Origin: Botryllus schlosseri
Taxonomy: Eukaryota
Length of the DNA: 64,000 bases
Assembly: GCA_051294905.1 (NCBI GenBank)
Contig: CM119373.1
Span: forward strand, 436,001-500,000
Direction: 5' to 3'
Part shown: piece after piece, positions 19,727-57,555 of the stretch
Layout of the letters: each line of letters begins with the position of its first letter
Numbering within the stretch: the stretch's first letter is position 1
Position numbers and translations under genes: made by a program
The notes under the pieces: generated by a model
What the model was told of the DNA's origin: nothing
Database searches by the model: none
The model's input: the letters and a program-made list of their open reading frames with translations, nothing else

Positions 19727-20539
19727 CCTGTCCCAAGCAATATTGGAAACAATCTGCCTTTCGCAACGGCTTACCGCCCTCCCGAAGTTCGAACTCGAGT
19801 GTTATGTTCATTTTCGTGCCGTCACTCTCCAACTGACACAGACCGTACGACGGGATCGAATATTTGATGATGTTTTCAATGCCGTGCGAAAAGGATCCGC
19901 TTGCCACGAATTCGAAACCATGGCGAGGTTTCACGCATTTGATACAGCTGTCAATTGTCTGGGTCATCGTGCACGGCAATGGGCAGAAATCCATCGTCTT
20001 GAAATCGGCACCGAGATTATTTTTCATGTCGACCATCAGTTGATTTCTGTCTGGTTCTGAGTGACGGATCAAAGCTACCCCGAAGTCGGAATTTTTAAAA
20101 CAGATTATCGGCCGAACTACATAGGTAACCGTCGACGACTGCTCATCCCTGAGAGTCCCGATGTATTGACCGCCTTCGCGCGACTGAAATTGCAGAGATG
20201 CTGCATTTCTCACTGTGACCGGTGTGATTACCACCCATTTTTTCGTATCGTCGTTGAACTGCATTAGATCAATGCCTACGTTATCGTCTTGAAAAATACA
20301 CCAGGACGGTAACGCCATTGTTGCCTGTTTCTGTAGGTTTTTGGCGTGCAAGAGAAGTGTTGGAGTTATAGCTTCCCTTCCAGCCGGCCACTTCTCCACG
20401 TCAATTTCGACCGTCACCGTAACGGGCTGGGTCCCAGTAAAGGTTCCGGCGGGGAAGTCGACTTTGCATCCTCCAACTTCAATATTTCCCGCTTCCTTGT
20501 CCATAGTAACCGTGCTCGTTTCGCGGGGAACCTTTTTGA
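19727..20539 (-). CDS. ZU5-UPA-like exon (813 nt, phase 1-1)
   Basis: Acceptor aaagcag|TC, donor CAGG|gtgagt; GNIEVGGCKVDFPAG...AITPTLLL aligns along its length with the 7410 exon. Confidence 0.8.
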
Positions 20540-21592
20540 CTGCTTTGACATCGACAGAAAATTGTAATTAAGATTTTGTTGTAATATATAGTCAAGGGAG
20601 GTGCTTATCCAACTTAAGACACAGCAGGAGTGTTAGACGATGACAATTGCCAAGAGCGATCTTCGGGCTCAATCATTACTTGTTAAACAGAGGAAATCAT
20701 CTTGTTTGAAATATAAGATGTCGCACTTGGCAGCATCGTGAACCTGAGCGATTCGATTTTGAGTCGTGTATATTAGGCTTCGAGTCGAGTATCAATAATA
20801 TGATGTTATAAGAGTAGAAAGGATGTGGTAAGTTTTATGCTATCATAAAAACTATAGTGACTCTTCTATATCACATTTAAGCTAATTGTTGCTTTTGTGA
20901 CTATAGGTTTGCATTTAGTTTACAGTGTTTTAAACAAAGGCTTTGTTAAAAAAAAAAATTAGTTATATAAATATGCCACAATTGTGTAAATACTTTCCAA
21001 AAGCATGTTGTATGAGTCTACGGACGACGATTTCCACCTGATATAGTCAACGTATACGATTTGGGATGCTTAGAATAGGGTTGCCATACGTCCGGAATTT
21101 TACGGGCATGTCCGGAATTTCACTGTTCAAACTAGCGTCCGGGAGGAATTTCTAGAATATGCCAAATGTCCGAAATTTTGAAGACTTGACGTAGGCTCAT
21201 ATTTTTTTTCGTAAATCAGCATAAAAACAATATTTTGTGGGAATATTTATGCTAATGCATGATATTTTTCTTCGCGCTACGCGCGATTACTATCACATTT
21301 ATTGATTTTAGTATGGAGACTACCGCCCTCGCAAAACTGCAATAAAATATAAATAAAAACAACCTTCGTTTACTGGAATAAGCCTAATTGTAATCGCACT
21401 TATAGGTGAACGCTATGTTCCTAGAGATCGTTAAGGCCGTTTAAATGCTTTATTCAAAGATAGTGGTTCCATACGGGGGGAGGGGGTCGTTTGCCTTTAT
21501 TATGGGGTTTGCGAATATGTTGAACGTAATCAGCTTCCAAAATAGTCCGTGAGTAAGTCTGGGCAAAGGTGCTGACTTCTTTTAGTAATCAG

Positions 21593-22769
21593 TAGGGCGA
21601 TTTTTTTTTGACATGTCAAAAAAAGTAAAAATTAGGCCAAAATTGTAGCGTTAGGTCAAACTTTGTAAAAATTGTTTACAAAATCAAACATTTTTTGACC
21701 TCTACATTTCGTTTGTATCGTAGATTTTGCGCTGTCTGTGAACTTATCATTTGATAATTTACAGCCTGTAGCCTACTTTTTTGGCCTACCGTTGTAAACG
21801 GCCCATCGTCTGCTCATTGAGAATCATAAACGGTCAAATGAAACAAATAGTGACATGATTTTATGGTCAACGTACCGCAATATCCTAACTGAAGCAAGAC
21901 TGCTTGGGCATTGCATGGTTCTTAAATCATGAAGCGCAAGCTGAAAAATTGTGATATAGACAACATTGTCAGAATGAAGCAACACGGTGCATCACCAGCA
22001 AGCAGTGTGCACACAACTTCAGTGTTGTCAGCTAACAACTGCTGCTGTTGAACGTTCTTTCTCCATTCTTGACAAGCTACTTAGTAAGAACAGACACTTT
22101 CTACCCGAGATAGCGCAGTGGTATAATCCGCGGCTGCAACACCAATGGGTGTGGGTTCGATTCCGACCGATGTCGACTTCATAATTCCGATAGCTAAGTG
22201 TTGGAGGTTTACCTAGGCTCCGCCCCGCCACCTCATCCACGTAAGCGGTGTCTTACAAAAAAGCCTAGAGGTGGGCCGTGCTATATGTTGGCAGTTACGG
22301 AAAATAATGAAGAATATCGGCCTGGTGTGAATGACCATAGTAGTTGAAAAACACCATGAATACCACAAAACAAACAAACAAAACAAACACTTTCTACCCG
22401 AGAATGTAGGAAAGTATCTTTCGTTGTACTACAACAAATTTTAATTATTTCACCATAATACGTAATGTAACTATACTGCAATTCTTCATAGGGCCAGATT
22501 TCGTTAAAATACTAGTTTTTTCATGTAAAAATATGTCAGTTTTTGAGCCAAAAACGTTCTTTCAGGCCAATCTACTTTGTAGGGACAGACAGTTCCAACC
22601 AGAAATGAAGATAAGTAGTACAATTTTAACATTATGTGCGAAAACACCTAATTTGCATACGTGAGGTCAAAATTTGGTCAAATTTCAGTTTTTTAGGTCA
22701 AAAAAGGTCAAAATTTATATTTTTTAGGTCAAAATCATCCGTTTTTTAGGTCAAAAAAATATCGCCCTA
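21593..22769 (+). mobile_element. Nested hAT non-autonomous element with AGGTCAAA repeats and a transposase C-terminal remnant; all 4 units
   Basis: TIR TAGGGCGAT; TSD GTAATCAG (21585-21592, 22770-22777); remnant TTAAVERSFSIL...NRHFLPE|NVGKYL is split by the SINE. Confidence 0.85.
22111..22386 (+). mobile_element. tRNA-derived SINE; copies at 28107-28382, 47057-47332, 53052-53327
   Basis: A box TAGCGCAGTGG, B box GGTTCGATTCC, (CAAA)n tail, 17-bp TSD ACACTTTCTACCCGAGA. Confidence 0.85.
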
Positions 22770-24262
22770 GTAATCAGCTGGTCAAATTTTGATCTGGGCC
22801 ACGGAACATTTTCAAATTGGAGATGGAGTCGCGACCATAAAAGGTTGGAAACCACCGGATGTGGGGTGTTGATAAAGCTACGTGGTGCGCACCGGCATAA
22901 GGTTGATAAACAATTTTATCGATAGGACATGAACATGACTTGTGCAATTACGCTCCCTGTATTTCCGAACTCATCATCCTCCACAAGCTCTACCGCTAAC
23001 TCTGATCATGTGGGCGGAGAGTAGTATCTAGTAATATATGGAACTACTAATATTATTAACAGAATTCATTCAAATAATTTAACGACCAGATGCATATAGA
23101 AAGCAGATTCATATAACAAGCACCCCCCCCCTCCCCAGAAGCTGCATCGATTGCCATATAGTAAGGGCTCAAAATCAATGTTTATTTGGGCGGGAAGGGG
23201 CTGCTGAAAACATGTGCTTTCGGTCCAGGTTACACGACACACAGCCACACACTCCTGAACCGGATCGTGACCACCTCTGGTCTATGAGGAAAGCTTTGCT
23301 AGTGTGACGTCATAACTCATTTTGAAATCCACTAGTGGGCACTGAAGAGTGTCCGGAATTTGGGTTACAGAAACATGGTAACCCTAGCTTAGAACCCTCG
23401 AAATAGTCGGTTTAACAACTATAGTACGTATATATAGATCATTGGTACGAAATGAATGTTCTGATGATGATGAGCACCGACCGTAAAATGCTGCAATACG
23501 ATGGAGTTACAGATATTTTTAATCCGTATATGAAAGAGGTTGGAAGCCTATTTTGTGTAAGGAGCTATATCTACCCTATATTTGCGATTGTGAATATCAT
23601 TCATTAGCGGTACGGGTACCACAGTCGAGAACCACTGTGATTTACATGATTACAGCATACAGGTAATGCAATAGCGATATTTTCATTGCAGATAAATATT
23701 GAATTTATTTTAATATTGAGATAGCAGAAAATAATCGGTGGGGAAATTCCCCAGTTTCATCGTGGGATAAGCCATCACTGGTATACCGACATGGTCAGTA
23801 AAGAAGTAGGCTACTTGTACTTTTTCGAAGTTCCCAAGTGGTTTTACACTACTTATCCAAGTAAATATAATTTACGCCACTACTACTTCGTCATATTCTG
23901 TGATTTATGACAAATTGCATGATTCCGTTCATAACGCATTGTCGCCTATCATGACATGCTTCTTGACAGTAATATGGTTTATCAGAGCGTTTGGAGCTAC
24001 CGCTTCGCAATCTAGCATACATAACGTATAATCTAGCACCTTTCCTGACTACTTTGGGCATCTGTGTTAAAATTGCCCAACAACACTCGCAAGTGTTAGT
24101 CAGAACATTTCAAGGGTTCGCACCATCCCTAAAACTTACATTACCAATAATCTGGTCGCGATAAAATTCTATTTTATTCGATTTGCCAGATGCTGAACCG
24201 ATCTCGTCGTTTATCGAAACGCATTACAAAATACCAGAATGCAGATGAAAGTTTGTACATAC

Positions 24263-24322
24263 CTCCAGGCTTATGTTGTCCAGGCGTTACTGGAGTCCGA
24301 TGATCTTTCCGACTGACTTTGT
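24263..24322 (-). CDS. 60-nt linker exon DKVSRKDHRTPVTPGQHKPG; copies 43213-43272, 49209-49268, 55203-55262
   Basis: ttctacag|AC...GGAG|gtatgt; phase 1-1; donor is GC in units 3 and 4. Confidence 0.6.
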
Positions 24323-24902
24323 CTGTAGAATCAAATAATTGATTTATTCTCTCCATTCCAAGGCATAAATAAGTGGGGAGAATACAGTTATTATTATTTC
24401 TTTATTCACAGTCTGGTAACTGGTAACTATACATGTACAACCCGGAGAGCAACGTGCTTAAGCCTATAAATCAGGGGCGGGCAACTTATCCGGTCGGCGG
24501 GCCTGATATGGCAAAATGAAGTAGGCGTACTTGGCGGGCTGGATTGCAGATTTTATACACTAATCGCGTATTTATCCACATACATACAAGGGATAAATCG
24601 CATTTAATGTAAACTTTACGTTTAAGGCAGAGAGACCAAAACAGTATTTCATGAATATATTAACCAGATGTATTTCAATAGCCGTTGCAGACAATCATAC
24701 ATCAGTGGTCTATCAAAGTTGCACTACAGGTAAACATCAGTTATATTGAAATGCAGTCTCGTCTTTTTAATGCTCGAAATTGTCGGAAATATTTGCTCTC
24801 TAATGTATGTAGACCCGAACAGGAAAAGTAGTTGGCCATCTTTCTCAGGTCGTCAAACTTGGATTTATTCTGTGACTCATAAAATTTGTCAATACTTTCG
24901 TA

Positions 24903-26280
24903 GGGGAGACCGGGGACAATTGTAACAGTTTTTGTATTTTCGAACATTACGTGTTTTTCTCGTGGATATTTCATTTCCAAACTTTTATATAAATAAGCCA
25001 ACAACTCGATAGTTGATATAAAAACTAAAATGGATCTCAATCAATATTCAATCATGGAAATTTTGGGTCGCGAAAATTGTCGCTTAAATGTTACAATCGC
25101 CCCTTGCCCCGGGGCAATTGTAACGTCCATGCGGTGCAATTTTAACAGTGTTATTTATAACTAAAACAAACGAAATGAATAACAATTCTGCGAGCACAAA
25201 TTGTACTATTGAATTACACTAAAAAAGAGACGTTTGAACGCTTCCAGGTTACGCCCCATCGCATTTTTGGCATCTGAATAAATTCTCATCCTTCGTGCCT
25301 TCTGCATGAGCTCAAAGTGTACGAGAAACACATTCATTCCATCATATCCCTACACATATTCGGCCTCTTCTACCGAGGTGCTGTAGTTCAGCGTGCATAA
25401 AGGGTTGGGCAATCGGTCACCTGCGAAGTTGCGAAACCGAACTGGCTAAAACATCTTTGTTGAATGGGCTGATGATAGTGTACCAAAACGAGAACACAAC
25501 ATTGTGTGGCATCAAAGCTAATGGTATTTTTCTGTTCCGCACAAAATTAAAATAAATTGTTCACATCAGATGACAAAATGTAATTGGGTAATAATCAAAG
25601 TCAGAGGATGAGGATTCAGTCACGGGCAAGCTCTTAAGTGACCATTGAAGGTCGACACAACAAAAGTCGATCAACATGAGAAAGGGTGGTAGAATCACGG
25701 AAATAACCGGACCCTAAGATTCACATCACCACTTCTGTATGGCCGTTCCGACAGAGTATCATGGTAGAATTGGTATGACCAGGTAGAGTCTGTTCTGGTA
25801 TTGAACTTCTGGCTGTTGCAAGATTCATCTGCAATAGATAAATAGTTATACCAACGTATGAACACATATATTAAGCATTGAAAAGATATTGTAACGGGAC
25901 AAAAGTAACAGAGTGTTACAATTGCCCCTGATACGCTCGACCACGATTAATGTCTCAGGATGGTGCCTTCCCGGCGACGCGAGTCCTAGTTTCCCTATCA
26001 TCACGGTAGACTATGGTAACATTTTTCCAGCTACATATATTGCATTGTAACCACTTGAGGTTTTATTCTTCAAAACAAATTATTCCAGATCAGAAAATAT
26101 TTACTCAAGGGTCCAAAATTTCGTTTTTTCGAAATTATTCTGGGGTTTCGCGTCGTAACTCAACGTAACTTCAAGTATATTAGAAAACATAACTACCGCA
26201 TGTGCACTCAAAATATGAAGGCGATTTCTTCATCCTATACTAGCGGTGAGGTCGATTGTTACATTTGTCCCCGTCTTCCC
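24903..26280 (-). mobile_element. Tc1/mariner-pogo-like non-autonomous element; copies 43853-45230, 49849-51226, 55843-57220
   Basis: TA flanks; TIR GGGGAGACCGGGGACAATTGTAACA/TGTTACATTTGTCCCCGTCTTCCC; degenerate PHD-like WNECVS..*AH...FRCQKC at ~25260-25345. Confidence 0.7.
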
Positions 26281-26336
26281 TACTATAACTTCACTTGCAA
26301 GTTAGAAACTTTCTGCGGGCCGCTCAGCGGATTTAC

Positions 26337-26537
26337 CTAGCATCGATTTTTTTAGAAAAGCCGTTCGTTCCAAATCTCGGTGTGCAATTTCCAACTTGGA
26401 AAGATAATCAGAGATTTCTGCGGGCTGGGTCCCAGTAAAGTTTCCGGCGGGGAAGTCGACTTTGCATCCTCCAACTTCAATATGTCCCGCTTCCTTGTCC
26501 ATAGTAACCGTGCTCGTTTCGCGGGGAACCTTTTTGA
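26337..26537 (-). CDS. Chimeric in-frame exon made by the duplication junction (ZU5 N-part + 3' part of exon 57277-57555); copies 45287-45487, 51283-51483
   Basis: 201 nt, phase 1-1, no stop: ...VDFPAG(N/T)FTGTQP|AEISDYLSKL...KKSML|gtaaat. Confidence 0.6.
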
Positions 26538-29220
26538 CTGCTTTGACATCGACAGAAAATTGTAATTAAGATTTTGTTGTAATATATAGTCAAGGGAGGT
26601 GCTTATCCAACTTAAGACACAGCAGGAGTGTTAGACGATGACAATTGCCAAGAGCGATCTTCGGGCTCAATCATTACTTGTTAAACAGAGGAAATCATCT
26701 TGTTTGAAATATAATATGTCGCACTTGGCAGCATCGTGAACCTGAGCGATTCGATTTTGAGTCGTGTATATTAGGCTTCGAGTCGAGTATCAATAATATG
26801 ATGTTATAAGAGTAGAAAGGATGTGGTAAGTTTTATGCTATCATAAAAACTATAGTGACTCTTCTATATCACATTTAAGCTAATTGTTGCTTTTGTGACT
26901 ATAGGTTTGCATTTAGTTTACAGTGTTTTAAACAAAGGCTTTGTTAAAAAAAAATTTAGTTATATAAATATGCCACAATTGTGTAAATACTTTCCAAGAG
27001 CATGTTGTATGAGTCTACGGACGACGATTTCCACCTGATATAGTCAACGTATACGATTTGGGATGCTTAGAATAGGGTTGCCATACGTCCGGAATTTTAC
27101 GGGCATGTCCGGAATTTCACTGTTCAAACTAGCGTCCGGGAGGAATTTCTAGAATATGCCAAATGTCCGAAATTTTGAAGACTTGACGTAGGCTCATATT
27201 TTTTTTCGTAAATCAGCATAAAAACAATATTTTGTGGGAATATTTATGCTAATGCATGATATTTTTCTTCGCGCTACGCGCGATTACTATCACATTTATT
27301 GATTTTAGTATGGAGACTACCGCCCTCGCAAAACTGCAATAAAATATAAATAAAAACAACCTTCGTTTACTGGAATAAGCCTAATTGTAATCGCACTTAT
27401 AGGTGAACGCTATGTTCCTAGAGATCGTTAAGGCCGTTTAAATGCTTTATTCAAAGATAGTGGTTCCATACGGGGGGAGGGGGTCGTTTGCCTTTATTAT
27501 GGGGTTTGCGAATATGTTGAACGTAATCAGCTTCCAAAATAGTCCGTGAGTAAGTCTGGGCAAAGGTGCTGACTTCTTTTAGTAATCAGTAGGGCGATTT
27601 TTTTTGACATGTCAAAAAAAGTAAAAATTAGGTCAAAATTGTAGCGTTAGGTCAAACTTTGTAAAAATTGTTTACAAAATCAAACATTTTTTGACCTCTA
27701 CATTTCGTTTGTATCGTAGATTTTGCGCTGTCTGTGAACTTATCATTTGATAATTTACAGCCTGTAGCCTACTTTTTTGGCCTACCGTTGTAAACGGCCC
27801 ATCGTCTGCTCATTGAGAATCATAAACGGTCAAATGAAACAAATAGTGACATGATTTTATGGTCAACGTACCGCAATATCCTAACTGAAGCAAGACTGCT
27901 TGGGCATTGCATGGTTCGTAAATCATGAAGCGCAAGCTGAAAAATTGTGATATAGACAACATTGTCAGAATGAAGCAACACGGTGCATCACCAGCAAGCA
28001 GTGTGCACACAACTTCAGTGTTGTCAGCTAACAACTGCTGCTGTTGAACGTTCTTTCTCCATTCTTGACAAGCTACTTAGTAAGAACAGACACTTTCTAC
28101 CCGAGATAGCGCAGTGGTATAATCCGCGGCTGCAACACCAATGGGTGTGGGTTCGATTCCGACCGATGTCGACTTCATAATTCCGATAGCTAAGTGTTGG
28201 AGGTTTACCTAGGCTCCGCCCCGCCACCTCATCCACGTAAGCGGTGTCTTACAAAAAAGCCTAGAGGTGGGCCGTTCTATATGTTGGCAGTTACGGAAAA
28301 TAATGAAGAATATCGGCCTGGTGTGAATGACCATAGTAGTTGAAAAACACCATGAATACCACAAAACAAACAAACAAAACAAACACTTTCTACCCGAGAA
28401 TGTAGGAAAGTATCTTTCGTTGTACTACAACAAATTTTAATTATTTCACCATAATACGTAATGTAACTATACTGCAATTCTTCATAGGGCCAGATTTCGT
28501 TAAAATACTAGTTTTTTCATGTAAAAATATGTCAGTTTTTGAGCCAAAAACGTTCTTTCAGGCCAATCTACTTTGTAGGGACAGACAGTTCCAACCAGAA
28601 ATGAAGATAAGTAGTACAATTTTAACATTATGTGCGAAAACACCTAATTTGCATACGTGAGGTCAAAATTTGGTCAAATTTCAGTTTTTTAGGTCAAAAA
28701 AGGTCAAAATTTATATTTTTTAGGTCAAAATCATCCGTTTTTTAGGTCAAAAAAATATCGCCCTAGTAATCAGCTCGTCAAATTTTGATCTGGGCCACGG
28801 AACATTTTCAAATTGGAGATGGAGTCGCGACCATAAAAGGTTGGAAACCACCGGATGTGGGGTGTTGATAAAGCTACGTGGTGCGCACCGGCATAAGGTT
28901 GATAAACAATTCTATCGATAGGACATGAACATGACTTGTGCAATTACGCTCCCTGTATTTCCGAACTCATCATCCTCCACAAGCTCTACCGCTAACTCTG
29001 ATCATGTGGGCGGAGAGTAGTATCTAGTAATATATGGAACTACTAATATTATTAACAGAATTCATTCAAATAATTTAACGACCAGATGCATATAGAAAGC
29101 AGATTCATATAACAAGCACACCCCCCCCCCCTCCCCAGAAGCTGCATCGATTGCCATATAGTAAGGGCTCAAAATCAATGTTTATTTGGGCGGGAAGGGG
29201 CTGCTGAAAACATGTGCTTT

Positions 29221-29433
29221 TGTAACGGTGTCGCTACTAGTTCTTTATACTCTTCAAGTGTAAATCAGTTCACAGCCAGACAGATACCGTAACAGTTATA
29301 TTCACGACAGTAGAAAGCGTGTACCACCCATACACAGACACAAAACAGAATATTCCAGAAGGTTGCGGTTATCTCCCGCGAACGCATTGTCTCCAGGGGT
29401 GACGTCATTGGCCATAGATGGCGCCCCGTCACA
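29221..29433 (-). repeat. 3' LTR
   Basis: 2 mismatches seen against the 5' LTR; preceded on the minus strand by polypurine tract GGAGGGGGGTATA (29434-29446). Confidence 0.95.
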
Positions 29434-29600
29434 TATACCCCCCTCCAAATTTTTTCGAATGGTACATGAGAAAATATCTACCTCAAAGCAAAAAGCAACG
29501 ACACACAAAAAATAATACGGCATAAAAGCCCAAAAAGGAACGAACATACAAAGGGTTAGGACAACTGATTGTGAAAATCAACGACAATGATGAAAATATG

Positions 29601-32600
29601 TCATGTTATGTAGTCTTGCAGACGACCAGGTCTGTTGATCTGTCGGCCAGCACGAGTGGTGGTTGGCGTCGTATCGTCAGCAGCAGGATCTGATGTAGAG
29701 GGCGATGATTCCCGCGTCTCCAGCAGATAAGGTCTGATATAATCAGCATGCGAAAGTCTGCACTGCCCATTGTCCAAGTTCTCGATTCGGTACAGGTATG
29801 GCGATTTCACTTCAATGACCTTGAATGGTCCAACCCACCCATTGGACAACTTCTTCACCAAGGGTTTATAGAAGAACCAGACTAAATCGCCGACACAGTA
29901 TGTGGCTGGTTTAACAGAGAGGTTAAAGTTGCGCTCCTGTTTCTCAGCAGATCTCGATAGCTGCTGTCTTGCAAACGTAAAGGCATCAGATGTTGTTGAT
30001 TCGACCCATTGTACATATTCATGATAATACTCGAACGACAGTTCGTTAGATGGTTTTCCAAACATCAAGTCTGTGGGAAGGGAAATTTCTCTCCCAAACA
30101 TGAGTCGGTTGGGCGTGTACCCTGTACTCTCATGAACAGTGGATTTGTATGCCATCAACAGATAAGGGATGTAGTCCTCCCAATCATTGCGATTTCCATT
30201 CCCCACAAACGTTTTTATCATTTTTTGCAAAGTCCCATTAAATTTCTCGACCAGACCATCACTACGTGGATGGTAAGATGTTGTTCGAGTCTTGTCAATT
30301 TCGAACAATTTCATGAGATGACGAAACAGCTCAGATTCAAATGCGGATCCACGATCAGAATGAATGGTGAATGGAACACCATATCTCGTGAAAAATTGAT
30401 TGACCAGCGCCTCCGCAGTAGTTACGGCTTTAACATCTTTGACAGGGTATGCTTCCACAAATTTACTAAAATAGTCCGTAACACATAATATAAACTCATT
30501 TCCGTTCTCAGACAATGGTAATGGTCCAATGTGATCAATGCCCGCTCTATCCATGATTTCCGCACATGGCATTTTTCGCAAGTAGGCTTGATGTTGTCGT
30601 AATGGCGTTTTTGCAGCAAAGCACGGTTTACATAATCTGGTCCAATCAGCAATTTGTCGATGCATGTTAGGCCAGTAAAATCTTGACTGAATTTTTTTGT
30701 AAGTTTTCTCCTTGCCAAGATGGCCGCCTGTTCTCGATTCATGGAGTAACCGGTAGACATCCTTACGCAAGCTCGATGGCATCACAATTTGAAAGAGCTC
30801 AACATTGCCCGGTATTTGTGACAAAAATTCTCGGTGCAAGACGTCATCCAAAACTCTCAAGACATCCCATTGCATACATAGGGTGCGGACATCCCTTGGA
30901 TATGGTAAAAGTTCAGTGCCTTTAGGAGCATGATCTCTAGTCTCGTTCCAGTTCAGCACGACCGATATGCACTCATCCTCCATCTGCAGCTCTCTAAGTT
31001 GACTTGGACTATATGATTCCAGCCAGGAGCACATTCTTTCATCAGTTCCGCTCTCAGGAGCTGGTTGAATAGCAGTCACTTCCAATCCGGGTAGGAAACA
31101 GGTTGGTTCAATGTCCGGCTTGTCGCCGCATGTAGCACAGCAATCCCTTTCACATTTACGTCTGATGCGGGAAAGTCCATCTGCGTTGCCATGCTTTGCC
31201 CCCGCTCTATGTTCAATTTTGAAGTTGAACATAGGCTATCTAACATGCTGACCCATCTCGCCGTAATGCCTTCTAGGTTCCGGAAGTTATACAACCACTG
31301 TAAAGAACTGTGATCCACTCTCAGTCGGAATGGCCTTCCCCACAAATAAGACCTGAAATGATTCACGGCCCACTGTACAGCATATAATTCCTGGAAGGTG
31401 GCACAATATCGTCTCTGTTGCTTGTTTAGCGTCTTGCTGGCATATGCAATCACCTTTTCTTCATTTTCCTGTACTTGGGAGAGGACTGCTCCTGCACCAA
31501 AGCCAGAGCAATCAGTATCGAGAACAAACTCTCCTGCAGTCTCAAGCGGATAAGCCAATATTGGTGTACTTGTTAATTTTTGTTTCAGAGACCGGAATGC
31601 CACCTGGCAATCATCGGACCATTCAAAGGTAGCCTTCTTCCGAGTGAGTTTCACCAATGGCTCTGCAATGGTTGAAAACTGGTCAATAAATCTTCGATAA
31701 TAGTTTGCCGTGCCGAGGAATGCTTGAACGTCCTTGAGATTTTTCGGCACTGGCCAATCCTTCACAGCAGAAACTTTGTCATCACTGCACTTGAGACCAT
31801 CTGGGCAAATCACATGTCCCAGGTACTCTACCTCCTGGTAAAACAGTTTGCATTTTTTAGGCTTAAGCTTAAGACCAGCGTCACGAATTCGCTTGAAAAC
31901 ATCTTCCAGATTGCAGAGTGTTTGGTCAAAGTTCTCCCCATACGCCAAAATGTCGTCCATGAAGGCAAGGCATTTCTTCCACAAGAGTCCATCAAGTAAC
32001 TTCTCCATCATTGCCATGAACGTGGCAGGCGCATTACACAAGCCAAAGCAAAGGACTGTCCATCGAAATTGCGAATGCAGTTTTGTCTCGGTCACTTGGA
32101 TTCAGGGGAACTTGCCAAAAACCGGATTCAAGATCCAGAGAACAATACCATTTTGCCCCACCCAGAGAATCCAGGATATCGTCAATGCGGGGCAGAGGAT
32201 GGGCATCCTTTACCGTGATTGTATTCAATTTCCGGAAGTCGGTGCAGAAACGGTACGTGTTATCCCGCTTTGGAACCAGAACAATCGGCGCGTTGTACGG
32301 GCTTTGGGCCTTCTCGATAACGCCCAGTTTTTCCATCTTTTCAATCTGCTCACCCACAATTTCTCGTGCCCTCCAACTCAAACGTCGCGGAGGCACTTTA
32401 ACTGGTACGGTAGAAGATAGCTCAATTTTGTGCTCAATCAAAGTGGTATATCCCAATTTTCCATCAGGCCCCGTGAATATATCCTGATACTTGATGAGAA
32501 GATCTCTTAACTGTTGTCGCTGTTGTACATTCAAGTGGTCTGGTTCTTCTACGGGGTGTCGGAGATGGTCCGGCAGATCCAAGCACGGTTCAACTTCCAC

Positions 32601-41827: not shown

Positions 41828-41886
41828 CGATGGACCCGCTCCAACTCTGCTCGCAGATACTCATTCTCGTCACGCAATGAATCCAT
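41828..41886 (-). pseudogene. gag: Displaced gag N-terminus
   Basis: MDSLRDENEYLRAELER joins in frame to VHRRIDD when the insert and one TSD are removed (407-aa Gag). Confidence 0.88.
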
Positions 41887-41935
41887 ACCGATACCGGTAT
41901 TCTTGTTGCACTGATCGCTGGTTGTTAACTTGAAG

Positions 41936-41951
41936 ACTGGTGTGCTCGCCA
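41936..41951 (-). promoter_or_regulatory. Primer binding site, tRNA-Arg-like
   Basis: TGGCGAGCacaCCAG begins 2 nt after the 5' LTR; partial complement of the tRNA-Arg(ACG) 3' end. Confidence 0.65.
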
Positions 41952-41953
41952 AT

Positions 41954-42166
41954 TGTAACGGTGTCGCTACTAGTTCTTTATACTCTTCAAGTGTAAATCA
42001 GTTCACAGCCAGACAGATACCGTAACAGTTATATTCACGACAGTAGAAAGCGTGTACCACCCATACACAGACACAAAACAGAATATTCCAGAAGGCTGCG
42101 GTTATCTCCCGCGAACGCATTGTCTCCAGGGGTAACGTCATTGGCCATAGATGGCGCCCCGTCACA
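41954..42166 (-). repeat. 5' LTR
   Basis: 213 bp, TG...CA, direct repeat of 29221-29433. Confidence 0.95.
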
Positions 42167-45100: not shown

Positions 45101-48100
45101 CGTCGTAACTCAACGTAACTTCAAGTATATTAGAAAACATAACTACCGCATGTGCACTCAAAATATGAAGGCGATTTCTTCATCCTATATTAGCGGTGAG
45201 GTCGATTGTTACATTTGTCCCCGTCTTCCCTACTATAACTTCACTTGCAAGTTAGAAACTTTCTGCGGGCCGCTCAGCGGATTTACCTAGCATCGATTTT
45301 TTTAGAAAAGCCGTTCGTTCCAAATCTCGGTGTGCAATTTCCAACTTGGAAAGATAATCAGAGATTTCTGCGGGCTGGGTCCCAGTAAAGGTTCCGGCGG
45401 GGAAGTCGACTTTGCATCCTCCAACTTCAATATGTCCCGCTTCCTTGTCCATAGTAACCGTGCTCGTTTCGCGGGGAACCTTTTTGACTGCTTTGACATC
45501 GACAGAAAATTGTAATTAAGATTTTGTTGTAATATATAGTCAAGGGAGGTGCTTATCCAACTTAAGACACAGCAGGAGTGTTAGACGATGACAATTGCCA
45601 AGAGCGATCTTCGGGCTCAATCATTACTTGTTAAACAGAGGAAATCATCTTGTTTGAAATATAATATGTCGCACTTGGCAGCATCGTGAACCTGAGCGAT
45701 TCGATTTTGAGTCGTGTATATTAGGCTTCGAGTCGAGTATCAATAATATGATGTTATAAGAGTAGAAAGGATGTGGTAAGTTTTATGCTATCATAAAAAC
45801 TATAGTGACTCTTCTATATCACATTTAAGCTAATTGTTGCTTTTGTGACTATAGGTTTGCATTTAGTTTACAGTGTTTTAAACAAAGGCTTTGTTAAAAA
45901 AAAAATTAGTTATATAAATATGCCACAATTGTGTAAATACTTTCCAAAAGCATGTTGTATGAGTCTACGGACGACGATTTCCACCTGATATAGTCAACGT
46001 ATACGATTTGGGATGCTTAGAATAGGGTTGCCATACGTCCGGAATTTTACGGGCATGTCCGGAATTTCACTGTTCAAACTAGCGTCCGGGAGGAATTTCT
46101 AGAATATGCCAAATGTCCGAAATTTTGAAGACTTGACGTAGGCTCATATTTTTTTTCGTAAATCAGCATAAAAACAATATTTTGTGGGAATATTTATGCT
46201 AATGCATGATATTTTTCTTCGCGCTACGCGCGATTACTATCACATTTATTGATTTTAGTATGGAGACTACCGCCCTCGCAAAACTGCAATAAAATATAAA
46301 TAAAAACAACCTTCGTTTACTGGAATAAGCCTAATTGTAATCGCACTTATAGGTGAACGCTATGTTCCTAGAGATCGTTAAGGCCGTTTAAATGCTTTAT
46401 TCAAAGATAGTGGTTCCATACGGGGGGAGGGGGTCGTTTGCCTTTATTATGGGGTTTGCGAATATGTTGAACGTAATCAGCTTCCAAAATAGTCCGTGAG
46501 TAAGTCTGGGCAAAGGTGCTGACTTCTTTTAGTAATCAGTAGGGCGATTTTTTTTGACATGTCAAAAAAAGTAAAAATTAGGTCAAAATTGTAGCGTTAG
46601 GTCAAACTTTGTAAAAATTGTTTACAAAATCAAACATTTTTTGACCTCTACATTTCGTTTGTATCGTAGATTTTGCGCTGTCTGTGAACTTATCATTTGA
46701 TAATTTACAGCCTGTAGCCTACTTTTTTGGCCTACCGTTGTAAACGGCCCATCGTCTGCTCATTGAGAATCATAAACGGTCAAATGAAACAAATAGTGAC
46801 ATGATTTTATGGTCAACGTACCGCAATATCCTAACTGAAGCAAGACTGCTTGGGCATTGCATGGTTCTTAAATCATGAAGCGCAAGCTGAAAAATTGTGA
46901 TATAGACAACATTGTTAGAATGAAGCAACACGGTGCATCACCAGCAAGCAGTGTGCACACAACTTCAGTGTTGTCAGCTAACAACTGCTGCTGTTGAACG
47001 TTCTTTCTCCATTCTTGACAATCTACTTAGTAAGAACAGACACTTTCTACCCGAGATAGCGCAGTGGTATAATCCGCGGCTGCAACACCAATGGGTGTGG
47101 GTTCGATTCCGACCGATGTCGACTTCATAATTCCGATAGCTAAGTGTTGGAGGTTTACCTAGGCTCCGCCCCGCCACCTCATCCACGTAAGCGGTGTCTT
47201 ACAAAAAAGCCTAGAGGTGGGCCGTTCTATATGTTGGCAGTTACGGAAAATAATGAAGAATATCGGCCTGGTGTAAATGACCATAGTAGTTGAAAAACAC
47301 CATGAATACCACAAAACAAACAAACAAAACAAACACTTTCTACCCGAGAATGTAGGAAAGTATCTTTCGTTGTACTACAACAAATTTTAATTATTTCACC
47401 ATAATACGTAATGTAACTATACTGCAATTCTTCATAGGGCCAGATTTCGTTAAAATACTAGTTTTTTCATGTAAAAATATGTCAGTTTTTGAGCCAAAAA
47501 CGTTCTTTCAGGCCAATCTACTTTGTAGGGACAGACAGTTCCAACCAGAAATGAAGATAAGTAGTACAATTTTAACATTATGTGCGAAAACACCTAATTT
47601 GCATACGTGAGGTCAAAATTTGGTCAAATTTCAGTTTTTTAGGTCAAAAAAGGTCAAAATTTATATTTTTTAGGTCAAAATCATCCGTTTTTTAGGTCAA
47701 AAAAATATCGCCCTAGTAATCAGCTCGTCAAATTTTGATCTGGGCCACGGAACATTTTCAAATTGGAGATGGAGTCGCGACCATAAAAGGTTGGAAACCA
47801 CCGGATGTGGGGTGTTGATAAAGCTACGTGGTGCGCACCGGCATAAGGTTGATAAACAATTTTATCGATAGGACATGAACATGACTTGTGCAATTACGCT
47901 CCCTGTATTTCCGAACTCATCATCCTCCACAAGCTCTACCGCTAACTCTGATCATGTGGGCGGAGAGTAGTATCTAGTAATATATGGAACTACTAATATT
48001 ATTAACAGAATTCATTCAAATAATTTAACGACCAGATGCATATAGAAAGCAGATTCATATAACAAGCACCCCCCCCCTCCCCAGAAGCTGCATCGATTGC

Positions 48101-51100
48101 CATATAGTAAGGGCTCAAAATCAATGTTTATTTGGGCGGGAAGGGGCTGCTGAAAACATGTGCTTTCGGTCCAGGTTACACGACACACAGCCTCACACTC
48201 CTGAACCGGATCGTGACCACCTCTGGTCTATGAGGAAAGCTTTGCTAGTGTGACGTCATAACTCATTTTGAAATTCACTAGTGGGCACTGAAGAGTGTCC
48301 GGAATTTGGGTTACAGAAACATGGTAACCCTAGCTTAGAACCCTCGAAATAGTCGGTTTAACAATTATAGTACGTATATATAGATCATTGGTACGAAATG
48401 AATGTTCTGATGATGATGAGCACCGACCGTAAAATGCTGCAATACGATGGAGTTACAGATATTTTTAATCCGTATATGAAAGAGGTTGGAAGCCTATTTC
48501 GTGTAAGGAGCTATATCTACCCTATATTTGCGATTGTGAATATCATTCATTAGCGGTACGGGTACCACAGTCGAGAACCACTGTGATTTACATGATTACA
48601 GCATACAGGTAATGCAATAGCGATATTTCCATTGCAGATAAATATTGAATTTATTTTAATATTGAGATAGCAGAAAATAATCGGTGGGGAAATTCCCCAG
48701 TTTCATCGTGGGATAAGCCATCACTGGTATACCGACATGGTCAGTAAAGAAGTAGGCTACTTGTACTTTTTCGAAGTTCCCAAGTGGTTTTACACTACTT
48801 ATCCAAGTAAATATAATTTACGCCACTACTACTTCGTCATATTCTGTGATTTATGACAGATTGCATGATTCCGTTCATAACGCATTGTCGCCTATCATGA
48901 CATGCTTCTTGACAGTAATATGGTTTATCAGAGCGTTTGGAGCTACCGCTTCGCAATCTAGCATACATAACGTATAATCTAGCACCTTTCCTGACTACTT
49001 TGAGCATCTGTGTTAAAATTGCCCAACAACACTCGCAAGTGTTAGTCAGAACCTTTCAAGGGTTCGCACCATCCCTAAAACTTACATTAGCAATAATCTG
49101 GTCGCGATAAAATTCTATTTTATTCGATTTGCCAGATGCTGAACCGATCTCGTCGTTTATCGAAACGCATTACAAAATACCAGAATGCAGATGAAAGTTT
49201 GTACATGCCTCCAGGCTTATGTTGTCCAGGCGTTACTGGAGTCCGATGATCTTTCCGACTGACTTTGTCTGTAGAATCAAATAATTGATTTATTCTCTCC
49301 ATTCCAAGGCATAAATAAGTGGGGAGAATACAGTTATTATTATTTCTTTATTCACAGTCTGGTAACTGGTAACTATACATGTGCAACCCGGAGAGCAACG
49401 TGCTTAAGCCTATAAATCAGGGGCGGGCAACTTATCCGGTCGGCGGGCCTGATATGGCAAAATGAAGTAGGCGTACTTGGCGGGCTGGATTGTAGATTTT
49501 ATACACTAATCGCGTATTTATCCACATACATACAAGGGATAAATCGCATTTAATGTAAACTTTACGTTTAAGGCAGAGAGACCAAAACAGTATTTCATGA
49601 ATATATTAACCAGATGTATTTCAATAGCCGTTGCAGACAATCATACATCAGTGGTCTATCAAAGTTGCACTACAGGTAAACATCAGTTATATTGAAATGC
49701 AGTCTCGTCTTTTTAATGCTCGAAATTGTCGGAAATATTTGCTCTCTAATGTATGTAGACCCGAACAGGAAAAGTAGTTGGCCATCTTTCTCAGGTCGTC
49801 AAACTTGGATTTATTCTGTGACTCATAAAATTTGTCAATACTTTCGTAGGGGAGACCGGGGACAATTGTAACAGTTTTTGTATTTTCGAACATTACGTGT
49901 TTTTCTCGTGGATATTTCATTTCCAAACTTATATATAAATAAGCCAACAACTCGATAGTTGATATAAAAACTAAAATGGATCTCAATCAATATTCAATCA
50001 TGGAAATTTTGGGTCGCGAAAATTGTCGCTTAAATGTTACAATCGCCCCGTGCCCCGGGGCAATTGTAACGTCAATGCGGTGCAATTTTAACAGTGTTAT
50101 TTATAACTAAAACAAACGAAATGAATAACAATACTGCGAGCACAAATTGTACTATTGAATTACACTAAAAAAGAGACGTTTGAACGCTTCCAGGTTACGC
50201 CCCATCGCATTTTTGGCATCTGAATAAATTCTCATCCTTCGTGCCTTCTGCATGAGCTCAAAGTGTACGAGAAACACATTCATTCCATCATATCCCTACA
50301 CATATTCGGCCTCTTCTACCGAGGTGCTGTAGTTCAGCGTGCATAAAGGGTTGGGCAATCGGTCACCTGCGAAGTTGCGAAACCGAACTGGCTAAAACAT
50401 CTTTGTTGAATGGGCTGATGATAGTGTACCAAAACGAGAACACAACATTGTGTGGCATCAAAGCTAATGGTATTTTTCTGTTCCGCACAAAATTAAAATA
50501 AATTGTTCACATCAGATGACAAAATGTAATTGGGTAATAATCAAAGTCAGAGGATGAGGATTCAGTCACGGGCAAGCTCTTAAGTGACCATTGAAGGTCG
50601 ACACAACAAAAGTCGATCAACATGAGAAAGGGTGGTAGAATCACGGAAATAACCGGACCCTAAGATTCACATCACCACTTCTGTATGGCCGTTCCGACAG
50701 AGTATCATGGTAGAATTGGTATGACCAGGTAGAGTCTGTTCTGGTATTGAACTTCTGGCTGTTGCAAGATTCATCTGCAGTAGATAAATAGTTATACCAA
50801 CGTATGAACACATATATTAAGCATTGAAAAGATATTGTAACGGGACAAAAGTAACAGAGTGTTACAATTGCCCCTGATACGCTCGACCACGATTAATGTC
50901 TCAGGATGGTGCCTTCCCGGCGACGCGAGTCCTAGTTTCCCTATCATCACGGTAGACTATGGTAACATTTTTCCAGCTACATATATTGCATTGTAACCAC
51001 TTGAGGTTTTATTCTTCAAAACAAATTATTCCAGATCAGAAAATATTTACTCAAGGGTCCAAAATTTCGTTTTTTTGAAATTATTCTGGGGTTTCGCGTC

Positions 51101-54100
51101 GTAACTCAACGTAACTTCAAGTATATTAGAAAACATAACTACCGCATGTGCACTCAAAATATGAAGGCGATTTCTTCATCCTATATTAGCGGTGAGGTCG
51201 ATTGTTACATTTGTCCCCGTCTTCCCTACTATAACTTCACTTGCAAGTTAGAAACTTTCTGCGGGCCGCTCAGCGGATTTACCTAGCATCGATTTTTTTA
51301 GAAAAGCCGTTCGTTCCAAATCTCGGTGTGCAATTTCCAACTTGGAAAGATAATCAGAGATTTCTGCGGGCTGGGTCCCAGTAAAGGTTCCGGCGGGGAA
51401 GTCGACTTTGCATCCTCCAACTTCAATATGTCCCGCTTCCTTGTCCATAGTAACCGTGCTCGTTTCGCGGGGAACCTTTTTGACTGCTTTGACATCGACA
51501 GAAAATTGTAATTAAGATTTTGTTGTAATATATAGTCAAGGGAGGTGCTTATCCAACTTAAGACACAGCAGGAGTGTTAGACGATGACAATTGCCAAGAG
51601 CGATCTTCGGGCTCAATCATTACTTGTTAAACAGAGGAAATCATCTTGTTTGAAATATAATATGTCGCACTTGGCAGCATCGTGAACCTGAGCGATTCGA
51701 TTTTGAGTCGTGTATATTAGGCTTCGAGTCGAGTATCAATAATATGATGTTATAAGAGTAGAAAGGATGTGGTAAGTTTTATGCTATCATAAAAACTATA
51801 GTGACTCTTCTATATCACATTTAAGCTAATTGTTGCTTTTGTGACTATAGGTTTGCATTTAGTTTACAGTGTTTTAAACAAAGGCTTTGTTAAAAAAAAA
51901 ATTAGTTATATAAATATGCCACAATTGTGTAAATACTTTCCAAAAGCATGTTGTATGAGTCTACAGACGACGATTTCCACCTGATATAGTCAACGTATAC
52001 GATTTGGGATGCTTAGAATAGGGTTGCCATACGTCCGGAATTTTACGGGCATGTCCGGAATTTCACTGTTCAAACTAGCGTCCGGGAGGAATTTCTAGAA
52101 TATGCCAAATGTCCGAAATTTTGAAGACTTGACGTAGGCTCATATTTTTTTTCGTAAATCAGCATAAAAACAATATTTTGTGGGAATATTTATGCTAATG
52201 CATGATATTTTTCTTCGCGCTACGCGCGATTACTATCACATTTATTGATTTAGTATGGAGACTACCGCCCTCGCAAAACTGCAATAAAATATAAATAAAA
52301 ACAACCTTCGTTTACTGGAATAAGCCTAATTGTAATCGCACTTATAGGTGAACGCTATGTTCCTAGAGATCGTTAAGGCCGTTTAAATGCTTTATTCAAA
52401 GATAGTGGTTCCATACGGGGGGAGGGGGTCGTTTGCCTTTATTATGGGGTTTGCGAATATGTTGAACGTAATCAGCTTCCAAAATAGTCCGTGAGTAAGT
52501 CTGGGCAAAGGTGCTGACTTCTTTTAGTAATCAGTAGGGCGATTTTTTTTGACATGTCAAAAAAAGTAAAAATTAGGTCAAAATTGTAGCGTTAGGTCAA
52601 ACTTTGTAAAAATTGTTTACAAAATCAAACATTTTTTGACCTCTACATTTCGTTTGTATCGTAGATTTTGCGCTGTCTGTGAACTTATCATTTGATAATT
52701 TACAGCCTGTAGCCTACTTTTTTGGCCTACCGTTGTAAACGGCCCATCGTCTGCTCATTGAGAATCATAAACGGTCAAATGAAACAAATAGTGACATGAT
52801 TTTATGGTCAACGTACCGCAATATCCTAACTGAAGCAAGACTGCTTGGGCATTGCATGGTTCTTAAATCATGAAGCGCAAGCTGAAAAATTGTGATATAG
52901 ACAACATTGTTAGAATGAAGCAACACGGTGCATCACCAGCAAGCAGTGTGCACACAACTTCAGTGTTGTCAGCTAACAACTGCTGCTGTTGAACGTTCTT
53001 TCTCCATTCTTGACAATCTACTTAGTAAGAACAGACACTTTCTACCCGAGATAGCGCAGTGGTATAATCCGCGGCTGCAACACCAATGGGTGTGGGTTCG
53101 ATTCCGACCGATGTCGACTTCATAATTCCGATAGCTAAGTGTTGGAGGTTTACCTAGGCTCCGCCCCGCCACCTCATCCACGTAAGCGGTGTCTTACAAA
53201 AAAGCCTAGAGGTGGGCCGTTCTATATGTTGGCAGTTACGGAAAATAATGAAGAATATCGGCCTGGTGCAAATGACCATAGTAGTTGAAAAACACCATGA
53301 ATACCACAAAACAAACAAACAAAACAAACACTTTCTACCCGAGAATGTAGGAAAGTATCTTTCGTTGTACTACAACAAATTTTAATTATTTCACCATAAT
53401 ACGTAATGTAACTATACTGCAATTCTTCATAGGGCCAGATTTCGTTAAAATACTAGTTCTTTCATGTAAAAATATGTCAGTTTTTGAGCCAAAAACGTTC
53501 TTTCAGGCCAATCTACTTTGTAGGGACAGACAGTTCCAACCAGAAATGAAGATAAGTAGTACAATTTTAACATTATGTGCGAAAACACCTAATTTGCATA
53601 CGTGAGGTCAAAATTTGGTCAAATTTCAGTTTTTTAGGTCAAAAAAGGTCAAAATTTATATTTTTTAGGTCAAAATCATCCGTTTTTTAGGTCAAAAAAA
53701 TATCGCCCTAGTAATCAGCTCGTCAAATTTTGATCTGGGCCACGGAACATTTTCAAATTGGAGATGGAGTCGCGACCATAAAAGGTTGGAAACCACCGGA
53801 TGTGGGGTGTTGATAAAGCTACGTGGTGCGCACCGGCATAAGGTTGATAAACAATTTTATCGATAGGACATGAACATGACTTGTGCAATTACGCTCCCTG
53901 TATTTCCGAACTCATCATCCTCCACAAGCTCTACCGCTAACTCTGATCATGTGGGCGGAGAGTAGTATCTAGTAATATATGGAACTACTAATATTATTAA
54001 CAGAATTCATTCAAATAATTTAACGACCAGATGCATATAGAAAGCAGATTCATATAACAAGCACCCCCCCCTCCCCAGAAGCTGCATCGATTGCCATATA

Positions 54101-57100
54101 GTAAGGGCTCAAAATCAATGTTTATTTGGGCGGGAAGGGGCTGCTGAAAACATGTGCTTTCGGTCCAGGTTACACGACACACAGCCTCACACTCCTGAAC
54201 CGGATCGTGACCACCTCTGGTCTATGAGGAAAGCTTTGCTAGTGTGACGTCATAACTCATTTTGAAATTCACTAGTGGGCACTGAAGAGTGTCCGGAATT
54301 TGGGTTACAGAAACATGGTAACCCTAGCTTAGAACCCTCGAAATAGTCGGTTTAACAATTATAGTACGTATATATAGATCATTGGTACGAAATGAATGTT
54401 CTGATGATGATGAGCACCGACCGTAAAATGCTGCAATACGATGGAGTTACAGATATTTTTAATCCGTATATGAAAGAGGTTGGAAGCCTATTTCGTGTAA
54501 GGAGCTATATCTACCCTATATTTGCGATTGTGAATATCATTCATTAGCGGTACGGGTACCACAGTCGAGAACCACTGTGATTTACATGATTACAGCATAC
54601 AGGTAATGCAATAGCGATATTTCCATTGCAGATAAATATTGAATTTATTTTAATATTGAGATAGCAGAAAATAATCGGTGGGGAAATTCCCCAGTTTCAT
54701 CGTGGGATAAGCCATCACTGGTATACCGACATGGTCAGTAAAGAAGTAGGCTACTTGTACTTTTTCGAAGTTCCCAAGTGGTTTTACACTACTTATCCAA
54801 GTAAATATAATTTACGCCACTACTACTTCGTCATATTCTGTGATTTATGACAGATTGCATGATTCCGTTCATAACGCATTGTCGCCTATCATGACATGCT
54901 TCTTGACAGTAATATGGTTTATCAGAGCGTTTGGAGCTACCGCTTCGCAATCTAGCATACATAACGTATAATCTAGCACCTTTCCTGACTACTTTGAGCA
55001 TCTGTGTTAAAATTGCCCAACAACACTCGCAAGTGTTAGTCAGAACCTTTCAAGGGTTCGCACCATCCCTAAAACTTACATTAGCAATAATCTGGTCGCG
55101 ATAAAATTCTATTTTATTCGATTTGCCAGATGCTGAACCGATCTCGTCGTTTATCGAAACGCATTACAAAATACCAGAATGCAGATGAAAGTTTGTACAT
55201 GCCTCCAGGCTTATGTTGTCCAGGCGTTACTGGAGTCCGATGATCTTTCCGACTGACTTTGTCTGTAGAATCAAATAATTGATTTATTCTCTCCATTCCA
55301 AGGCATAAATAAGTGGGGAGAATACAGTTATTATTATTTCTTTATTCACAGTCTGGTAACTGGTAACTATACATGTGCAACCCGGAGAGCAACGTGCTTA
55401 AGCCTATAAATCAGGGGCGGGCAACTTATCCGGTCGGCGGGCCTGATATGGCAAAATGAAGTAGGCGTACTTGGCGGGCTGGATTGTAGATTTTATACAC
55501 TAATCGCGTATTTATCCACATACATACAAGGGATAAATCGCATTTAATGTAAACTTTACGTTTAAGGCAGAGAGACCAAAACAGTATTTCATGAATATAT
55601 TAACCAGATGTATTTCAATAGCCGTTGCAGACAATCATACATCAGTGGTCTATCAAAGTTGCACTACAGGTAAACATCAGTTATATTGAAATGCAGTCTC
55701 GTCTTTTTAATGCTCGAAATTGTCGGAAATATTTGCTCTCTAATGTATGTAGACCCGAACAGGAAAAGTAGTTGGCCATCTTTCTCAGGTCGTCAAACTT
55801 GGATTTATTCTGTGACTCATAAAATTTGTCAATACTTTCGTAGGGGAGACCGGGGACAATTGTAACAGTTTTTGTATTTTCGAACATTACGTGTTTTTCT
55901 CGTGGATATTTCATTTCCAAACTTATATATAAATAAGCCAACAACTCGATAGTTGATATAAAAACTAAAATGGATCTCAATCAATATTCAATCATGGAAA
56001 TTTTGGGTCGCGAAAATTGTCGCTTAAATGTTACAATCGCCCCGTGCCCCGGGGCAATTGTAACGTCCATGCGGTGCAATTTTAACAGTGTTATTTATAA
56101 CTAAAACAAACGAAATGAATAACAATACTGCGAGCACAAATTGTACTATTGAATTACACTAAAAAAGAGACGTTTGAACGCTTCCAGGTTACGCCCCATC
56201 GCATTTTTGGCATCTGAATAAATTCTCATCCTTCGTGCCTTCTGCATGAGCTCAAAGTGTACGAGAAACACATTCATTCCATCATATCCCTACACATATT
56301 CGGCCTCTTCTACCGAGGTGCTGTAGTTCAGCGTGCATAAAGGGTTGGGCAATCGGTCACCTGCGAAGTTGCGAAACCGAACTGGCTAAAACATCTTTGT
56401 TGAATGGGCTGATGATAGTGTACCAAAACGAGAACACAACATTGTGTGGCATCAAAGCTAATGGTATTTTTCTGTTCCGCACAAAATTAAAATAAATTGT
56501 TCACATCAGATGACAAAATGTAATTGGGTAATAATCAAAGTCAGAGGATGAGGATTCAGTCACGGGCAAGCTCTTAAGTGACCATTGAAGGTCGACACAA
56601 CAAAAGTCGATCAACATGAGAAAGGGTGGTAGAATCACGGAAATAACCGGACCCTAAGATTCACATCACCACTTCTGTATGGCCGTTCCGACAGAGTATC
56701 ATGGTAGAATTGGTATGACCAGGTAGAGTCTGTTCTGGTATTGAACTTCTGGCTGTTGCAAGATTCATCTGCAATAGATAAATAGTTATACCAACGTATG
56801 AACACATATATTAAGCATTGAAAAGATATTGTAACGGGACAAAAGTAACAGAGTGTTACAATTGCCCCTGATACGCTCGACCACGATTAATGTCTCAGGA
56901 TGGTGCCTTCCCGGCGACGCGAGTCCTAGTTTCCCTATCATCACGGTAGACTATGGTAACATTTTTCCAGCTACATATATTGCATTGTAACCACTTGAGG
57001 TTTTATTCTTCAAAACAAATTATTCCAGATCAGAAAATATTTACTCAAGGGTCCAAAATTTCGTTTTTTCGAAATTATTCTGGGGTTTCGCGTCGTAACT

Positions 57101-57276
57101 CAACGTAACTTCAAGTATATTAGAAAACATAACTACCGCATGTGCACTCAAAATATGAAGGCGATTTCTTCATCCTATACTAGCGGTGAGGTCGATTGTT
57201 ACATTTGTCCCCGTCTTCCCTACTATAACTTCACTTGCAAGTTAGAAACTTTCTGCGGGCCGCTCAGCGGATTTAC

Positions 57277-57555
57277 CTAGCATCGATTTTTTTAGAAAAG
57301 CCGTTCGTTCCAAATCTCGGTGTGCAATTTCCAACTTGGAAAGATAATCAGAGATTTCTGCAGACATCTGACCGAGGAGGTTATCATCACTTCGCGGAAT
57401 GCTGAGAAGTTCTTTCATATCTGTTGAGTGTATGGCGTACAGTGGAAGAACCGTCTCTGCGAATGGGAGCCAGACATTCAGGAATTTTTCAACTCTGGCG
57501 ACAAATCCATTTCCGAAGTGAATGATGTCTTGCGGTGTCCCCGCGTGTTGGTAAT
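57277..57555 (-). CDS. Upstream exon of the ZU5/DD gene (279 nt, phase 1-1; domain not recognised)
   Basis: cttttag|AT...CTAG|gtaaat; 93 open codons YQHAGTPQDIIHFGNGF...LKKSML; missed by the ORF track. Confidence 0.7.

Follow-up and report, generated by a model that had tools for sequence, protein, structure and literature searches.

The locus analyzed here raises the question of whether an amplification within a single gene is adding a repeat to an immune-type protein or is a copy-number variant that the gene tolerates. It lies in a stretch of 64,000 nucleotides of Botryllus schlosseri (assembly GCA_051294905.1, contig CM119373.1, positions 436,001 to 500,000 of the forward strand), hereafter called the window, to which all coordinates refer. 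Our analysis favors the second answer: we consider the array to be a young, probably polymorphic intragenic tandem amplification that was tolerated because it is frame-neutral, i.e., an ordinary copy-number variant (probability of about 0.62).

Self-BLAST and alignment of the window revealed four head-to-tail copies of a 6.0-kb unit at 20423-57360, inside one predicted gene. One of them carries a large insert:

20423..26420: unit U1, 5,998 bp, whose left end runs on into the intact ZU5-UPA exon
26421..45370: unit U2, 6,000 bp once its insert and one copy of the 4-bp target duplication of this insert are subtracted
29221..42166, minus strand: Ty3/gypsy-type LTR element of 12,946 bp with a 4-bp target duplication, intronic, present in U2 only, on the same strand as the host gene
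45371..51366: unit U3, 5,996 bp
51367..57360: unit U4, 5,994 bp, whose right end runs on into the intact exon A

The three internal junctions (26420/1, 45370/1 and 51366/7) are letter-identical across the 51 nt compared. Their parental breakpoints lie within the ZU5-UPA exon (20422/20423) and within exon A (57360/57361). The join shows 1 bp of microhomology (C at 20423 and 57361), with the first mismatch at 57362, and no extended homology between the two breakpoints was detected over the 60 nt compared. Non-allelic homologous recombination was therefore ruled out as the first event, since only 1 bp is shared and long repeats are absent at the breakpoints. Head-to-tail copies with a novel junction characterize an intragenic tandem duplication, and here both breakpoints fall in exons of one gene, exon A being found spliced in one sequencing run (X6, see below) and the ZU5-UPA exon being recognized by homology and fold. 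Judging from their phases, exons A and B and the ZU5-UPA exon would be parts of a single mRNA. Self-comparison, alignment and inspection of the breakpoints thus bear out the original prediction that both ends lie in coding exons and share 1 bp; the large insertions, which had been predicted to be intronic, amount to a single one in the array, and it does lie within an intron.

The host gene is on the minus strand. Its exons, in the order of transcription, are as follows:

57277..57555, minus strand: exon A, phase 1-1 and 279 nt long, supported as an exon by splice sites and an X6 contig and predicted to form a helical hairpin
55203..55262, minus strand: predicted linker exon B in U4, 60 nt, GC donor
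51283..51483, minus strand: predicted fused exon 3, in frame and 201 nt long, in which the ZU5 start meets the end of exon A
49209..49268, minus strand: predicted linker exon B in U3, GC donor
45287..45487, minus strand: predicted fused exon 2
43213..43272, minus strand: predicted linker exon B in U2, GT donor
26337..26537, minus strand: predicted fused exon 1, with one private missense change
24263..24322, minus strand: predicted linker exon B in U1, GT donor
19727..20539, minus strand: intact ZU5-UPA exon, 813 nt, phase 1-1, devoid of the F/S self-cleavage motif (the slash marks the cleaved bond)
16356..16559, minus strand: candidate death-domain-like exon, 204 nt, phase 1-1, weakly supported and assumed to belong to the same gene
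7410..8404, minus strand: second ZU5-UPA-like exon, which ends in a stop and keeps HFS

The last of these is part either of the same gene or of a neighbouring paralogue. A candidate additional exon near 25830/56770 was dropped, as it is covered by diverged repeat contigs.

Exon A, exon B, the fused exons and the 813-nt exon all have open frames in phase 1-1, so that any pattern of inclusion or skipping keeps the frame. No stop or frameshift was found in them or in the death-like exon. On the minus strand, the junction peptide reads in frame as TQP/AEISD (the slash marks the join), each fused exon having 201 nt (67 codons) and each linker 60 nt (20 codons). Translation of the junction and a check of the splice sites agree with the predicted preservation of the frame and of the phase 1-1 splice sites. 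If all copies were included, the computed stretch from exon A to the ZU5-UPA exon would grow from 384 to 645 codons, 87 additional residues in each of three rounds being the possible maximum product. The lengths given in the original prediction (67 + 20 = 87 residues per unit) are therefore right, whereas its term "half-ZU5" is not, the piece covering about 37-39 of about 130 residues, i.e., the first three strands. The acceptor of the ZU5-UPA exon is predicted, two phase-1 AGs lying 3 nt apart. The donor of linker exon B has changed from GT to GC in U3 (49208) and U4 (55202), the first two transcribed copies.

In the structural model, the fourth ZU5 strand (residues 37-44) begins directly after the break. 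The fused exon would thus encode three ZU5 strands (under a third of the domain), followed by 28 residues that belong to the second helix predicted, at low confidence, for exon A. Such a stub is, from this model, unlikely to fold alone. Full inclusion would yield three repeats of the three-strand ZU5 stub, the 28-residue helix and the 20-residue linker; most likely, the fusion would produce a floppy, unstructured spacer ahead of the intact ZU5-UPA, or the fused exons would be skipped. No new domain or function would then arise and the allele would be near neutral or mildly harmful. The two further rises in copy number that followed the initial duplication speak against such near-neutrality.

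Four of the 24 sequencing runs listed (X1, X5, X6 and X23) were compared with the 51335-64000 part of the window at 88% likeness. In the DNA run X1, three contigs that match the unit perfectly have depths of 37.1, 37.3 and 38.7, compared to 9.38 and 7.66 for the two contigs of the single-copy flank. The resulting unit/flank ratio is 4.0-4.9, and the window sequence predicts 3.7-3.9 copies for these k-mers. Furthermore, the start of the flank contig, at 57332, precedes the first mismatch at the junction (57362) by exactly 30 nt; the contig breaks at this position because an assembly graph holding both continuations must fork there. Read depth, which had been proposed beforehand as a check of copy number, hence gives an about four-fold signal inside the unit together with a contig break at the junction. 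Since X1 possibly derives from the sample behind the assembly, its depth is a check on the assembly and not on the spread of the allele. Misassembly is unlikely, and a single copy or two haplotypes written four times is a highly improbable explanation: the pairwise identity of the copies is indeed 99.5-99.9% (7-27 substitutions, 0.1-0.45% divergence) and a long read spanning the array is not among the data seen, but this explanation conflicts with the depth and the graph fork, with the 39 substituted columns (22 transitions), whose variants are common to several copies in shared patterns, and with a copy-specific insertion that has its own target duplication and an empty site in the other three units.

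In X5, which comes from another sample, the summed contig depths of the unit-start and exon A bins are 59 and 62 (ratio of 0.95), compared to 64.3 and 22.6 in X1 (ratio of 2.8), the expectation being 1.0 for one copy and 2.3 for four; this comparison concerns two bins and a summed contig depth, which is no copy number. This second animal looks single-copy for the unit. The array is therefore probably polymorphic, with the unamplified form apparently still present in other animals. At 57257-57679, the summed depth of X1 is 22.6, compared to about 16 expected from this haplotype alone; the excess may correspond to a second, diverged allele, in which case the array is heterozygous.

The amplification preferred here would have proceeded in three steps. 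A non-homologous join with 1 bp of microhomology, through end joining or a replication template switch, would have duplicated the 6 kb from exon A to the ZU5-UPA exon. Unequal crossing-over or conversion among the 6-kb copies would have raised their number to four, the same junction being copied each time. The insertion of the LTR element into one copy and the GT-to-GC donor change in the U3/U4 lineage, both present in the sequence, would have come last. Among the 11 informative sites, the three U1=U4 sites all lie to the right of the eight U3=U4 sites (P 0.012, post hoc), as unequal crossing-over or conversion of a junction made once and then copied would leave them. The copies diverge less from one another (0.1-0.45%) than exon A does from the allele in X6 (4 differences in 280 nt), and, judging from this one short comparison, common alleles are probably older than the array. 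A random duplication would have both ends in exons and be in frame in about 0.5-0.9% of cases (a crude post hoc estimate), and the survival of this one may have been filtered by an expressed gene; the rarity of the outcome loses part of its weight because frame-breaking versions are lost from a working gene. The intact frames and splice sites of the three fused exons carry no weight because they are too young.

The nature of the host gene was examined through its ZU5-UPA exon, which gave 33 matches among 1.84 billion representative proteins. Among the 20 relatives that were looked up, 11 are named, all as uncharacterized Styela clava proteins (22-33% identity), and nine are unnamed. The 29 scanned relatives include four with a NACHT domain, one with a caspase domain, one with a kinase and a Ribonuc_2-5A domain, and two with a Pfam ZU5 match. 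In the uncharacterized Styela clava proteins P0009, P0011, P0021, P0023, P0025, P0028 and P0031, the module is accompanied by NACHT, caspase, or kinase plus Ribonuc_2-5A domains, and in P0009 it is present twice in tandem. The relative P0030 was treated as a chance match (30-residue stretch). The Pfam scan of the exon gave no ZU5 match, word-based protein searches were blank, the Atlas leads were all below 0.9, and sequence searches against solved structures were blank or gave chance matches. The predicted model (pLDDT of 93, built on a 21-row alignment) shows a ZU5 beta-sandwich followed by a UPA beta-sandwich, as in ZU5-UPA supramodules. It aligns with the ZU5-UPA of UNC5b (3g5b; Z of 18.8, rmsd of 3.6, 257 residues aligned) and with the FIIND of CARD8 (7jkq; Z of 15.8, rmsd of 3.2, 240 residues aligned), and Foldseek agrees. 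Overall, this exon is a member of a ZU5-UPA family that is divergent, ascidian and found in combination with NACHT, caspase and kinase-RNase domains. No description of such an ascidian family was found in the titles or abstract openings of the literature searched, from which subscription journals are largely absent. By association with these relatives and by the fold, a role of the gene in immunity or cell death is probable.

According to two papers, CARD8 and NLRP1 self-cleave at SF/S (PMC3210808, PMC7794362) and autoproteolytic ZU5 domains of the FIIND/PIDD type carry an F/S motif at the ZU5 end, with a catalytic serine (PMC3210808). The aligned site is FS in 11 of the 21 rows of our alignment, including the second exon (8404-7410), and GG in the exon at 20539-19727. 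An autoproteolytic FIIND/PIDD-type identity was therefore rejected for the latter, and the release mechanism of NLRP1/CARD8 should not apply to it. It is probably, from its sequence, a non-cleaving scaffold. The ZU5-UPA of UNC5 and of ankyrins are likewise scaffolds and are not known to self-cleave. The predicted fold is of the supramodule kind shared by ankyrins, PIDD1, UNC5b and the FIIND of NLRP1/CARD8, with the candidate death-like exon coming here after the module. However, the window copy differs from the UNC5b/CARD8-type supramodule by an identity of about 10%, the lack of a Pfam ZU5 match and GG in place of F/S, and no transmembrane, ankyrin, LRR or NACHT part was seen in the window.

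The death-like exon aligns with positions 23-56 of the 86 of the Pfam Death profile PF00531, at an E value of 0.083 and 13.5 bits compared to a cut-off of 22.6, and shows 41% identity over 44 aa with the N-terminus of P0023. The exon A model is a helical hairpin of no known family and of low confidence (pLDDT of 64); a word-based protein search with exon A was blank and the fold search of its model gave no match. No credible NACHT exon was found in the window by tblastn with 40 relatives, some of them NACHT-bearing, and the 5′ end of the gene may lie beyond the window. The second ZU5-UPA-like exon shares 27% identity over 238 aa with the first. Its tail contains short motifs rich in glycine, asparagine and valine, and several relatives end in similar tails; we take these motifs to resemble RHIM-like amyloid motifs.

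The element inserted in U2 has LTRs of 213 nt with two differences, and its gag and pol domains are spread over four ORFs, three of which share the protease, reverse transcriptase (RT), RNase H and integrase domains. A weak dUTPase-like match (E value of 0.017) lies between protease and RT. A nested DNA transposon at 36131-41381 is bounded by terminal inverted repeats of 30 nt without a mismatch, with a 7-bp duplication on its flanks, and its matches to THAP and to a transposase RNase H are weak.

Transcript evidence concerns, among the predicted exons, exon A only. A 713-nt contig of X6 matches 57277-57556 with four differences and no gap and ends at the predicted splice sites of this exon, from which we infer that X6 is an RNA run. 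This contig crosses the exon A breakpoint unbroken, where the X1 contig forks, which suggests that an abundant fused transcript is absent in this sample, keeping in mind that contigs show presence and not absence and that the animal may lack the array. The fused junction is absent among the 15 read joints listed (2262 further ones exist), transposon matches dominating at 88% likeness and the RNA coming from animals that may lack the array. Among the runs listed for 19500-26800 none is RNA, which says nothing about expression.

The amplified allele could have lost its function, the array being drifting debris in a family with fast turnover, if the sense LTR element with its transposon, the GC donors or misfolded stubs block the product. 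We regard this as unlikely. The insert, on the host strand, has extended the U2 intron to 16.7 kb, two of the four linker exons have GC donors, the two coding differences that distinguish the ZU5-stub copies are both missense, and a scan of the downstream part of the window gave no convincing exon for the remainder of the death-like domain. In the bulk RNA run X23, of which about 6% was read, the depth is also zero in each of the two exon bins. However, the exons are all free of stops and frameshifts, exon A is spliced in X6, and the 12.9-kb insert contains fewer sense AATAAA motifs (n = 5) than a plain 6-kb unit (n = 10).

It is less probable still that the expansion is expressed and selected, with fused exons spliced in singly or combined and forming an N-terminal arm of variable length (decoy, protease bait or competing ZU5 strands) on an immune sensor or adaptor, a reading implied by the original prediction. 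The in-frame junction with symmetric phases, the amplification past two copies, the NACHT (4 of the 29 relatives), caspase (1) and kinase + RNase (1) partners of the module, and a fold like those of UNC5b and of the FIIND of CARD8/NLRP1 would all suit such a role. It is at odds with the unbroken X6 contig (with the limit on contigs given above), with a stub smaller than one third of a ZU5, with a ZU5 lacking F/S and with a local precedent of decay. This precedent is an older 128-bp tandem duplicate (8306-8561, minus strand) that covers the acceptor of the second ZU5 exon together with its first 99 nt. Its upstream copy would shift the frame and all five coding changes (5/5) are non-synonymous. 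Furthermore, 16 of 18 relatives (scores of at least 35; P0030 and ids above P0033 left out) fit the downstream copy better, one fits the upstream copy better and one is a tie. From its sequence, this duplicate is decaying, its upstream copy having apparently become intron. The most far-reaching version is very doubtful: transcripts of carriers would include anything from none to all three of the fused exons, so that a single mutation would give a ZU5-UPA/death-fold immune adaptor, from an ascidian family not yet described, a tunable N-terminal arm, with stubs acting as bait or strand competitors and kept by selection, and a protein repeat would be born from a mid-exon junction.

The tolerated copy-number variant favored here can be compared with known systems. 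In KMT2A-PTD and in DMD exon duplications, an internal gene block is repeated head to tail and the frame is kept. There, the breakpoints are mostly intronic and the exons are repeated in full, whereas here the breaks inside exons create a fused exon. The original prediction saw in this locus exon shuffling and repeat expansion caught in progress in an immune/apoptosis-type gene. A recent and real expansion in a gene of the immune or cell-death type stands, given the depth, the fold and the relatives. Exon shuffling in the strict sense, i.e., intron recombination that moves whole exons, does not, since this is an internal duplication with both breakpoints inside exons, no fused transcript among the joints listed, a stub that is, from the model, probably too small to fold as a domain and an older duplicate that is decaying. 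The locus does resemble the shuffling of phase 1-1 modules in that all its exons are in phase 1-1 and that Styela clava proteins carry ZU5-UPA alongside widely differing domains. However, such shuffling moves whole modules through introns, whereas the array cuts two modules and stays in the gene. According to a study of Drosophila yakuba and D. simulans, tandem duplications of which the two ends both lie in coding sequence are common among segregating variants and are later modified by inserted DNA (PMC4069613). The array is like these in its two coding ends, its fused reading frame and its later insertion of foreign sequence; the fly chimeras described there join two genes, whereas here one gene is involved, with four copies and all exons in phase 1-1 (PMC4069613).

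The array is real and adds a new case to a class of structural variants that is already known. It provides a clean, datable example of how an internal duplication can seed a protein repeat regardless of exon borders and, since the unamplified form is apparently still present in other animals, the two alleles are directly comparable. Expression and selection of the fused exons, if they took place, would add to its importance. Possibly worth more than the array is the divergent single-exon ZU5-UPA module, missed by Pfam here, which occurs in ascidian proteins beside NACHT, caspase or kinase-RNase domains and with or without the self-cleavage motif. Finally, the introns flanking the death-like exon contain further tandem repeats at 15723-16282 (276 bp x 2) and 17564-18062 (73 bp x 6.8), so that this locus has been duplicated several times.
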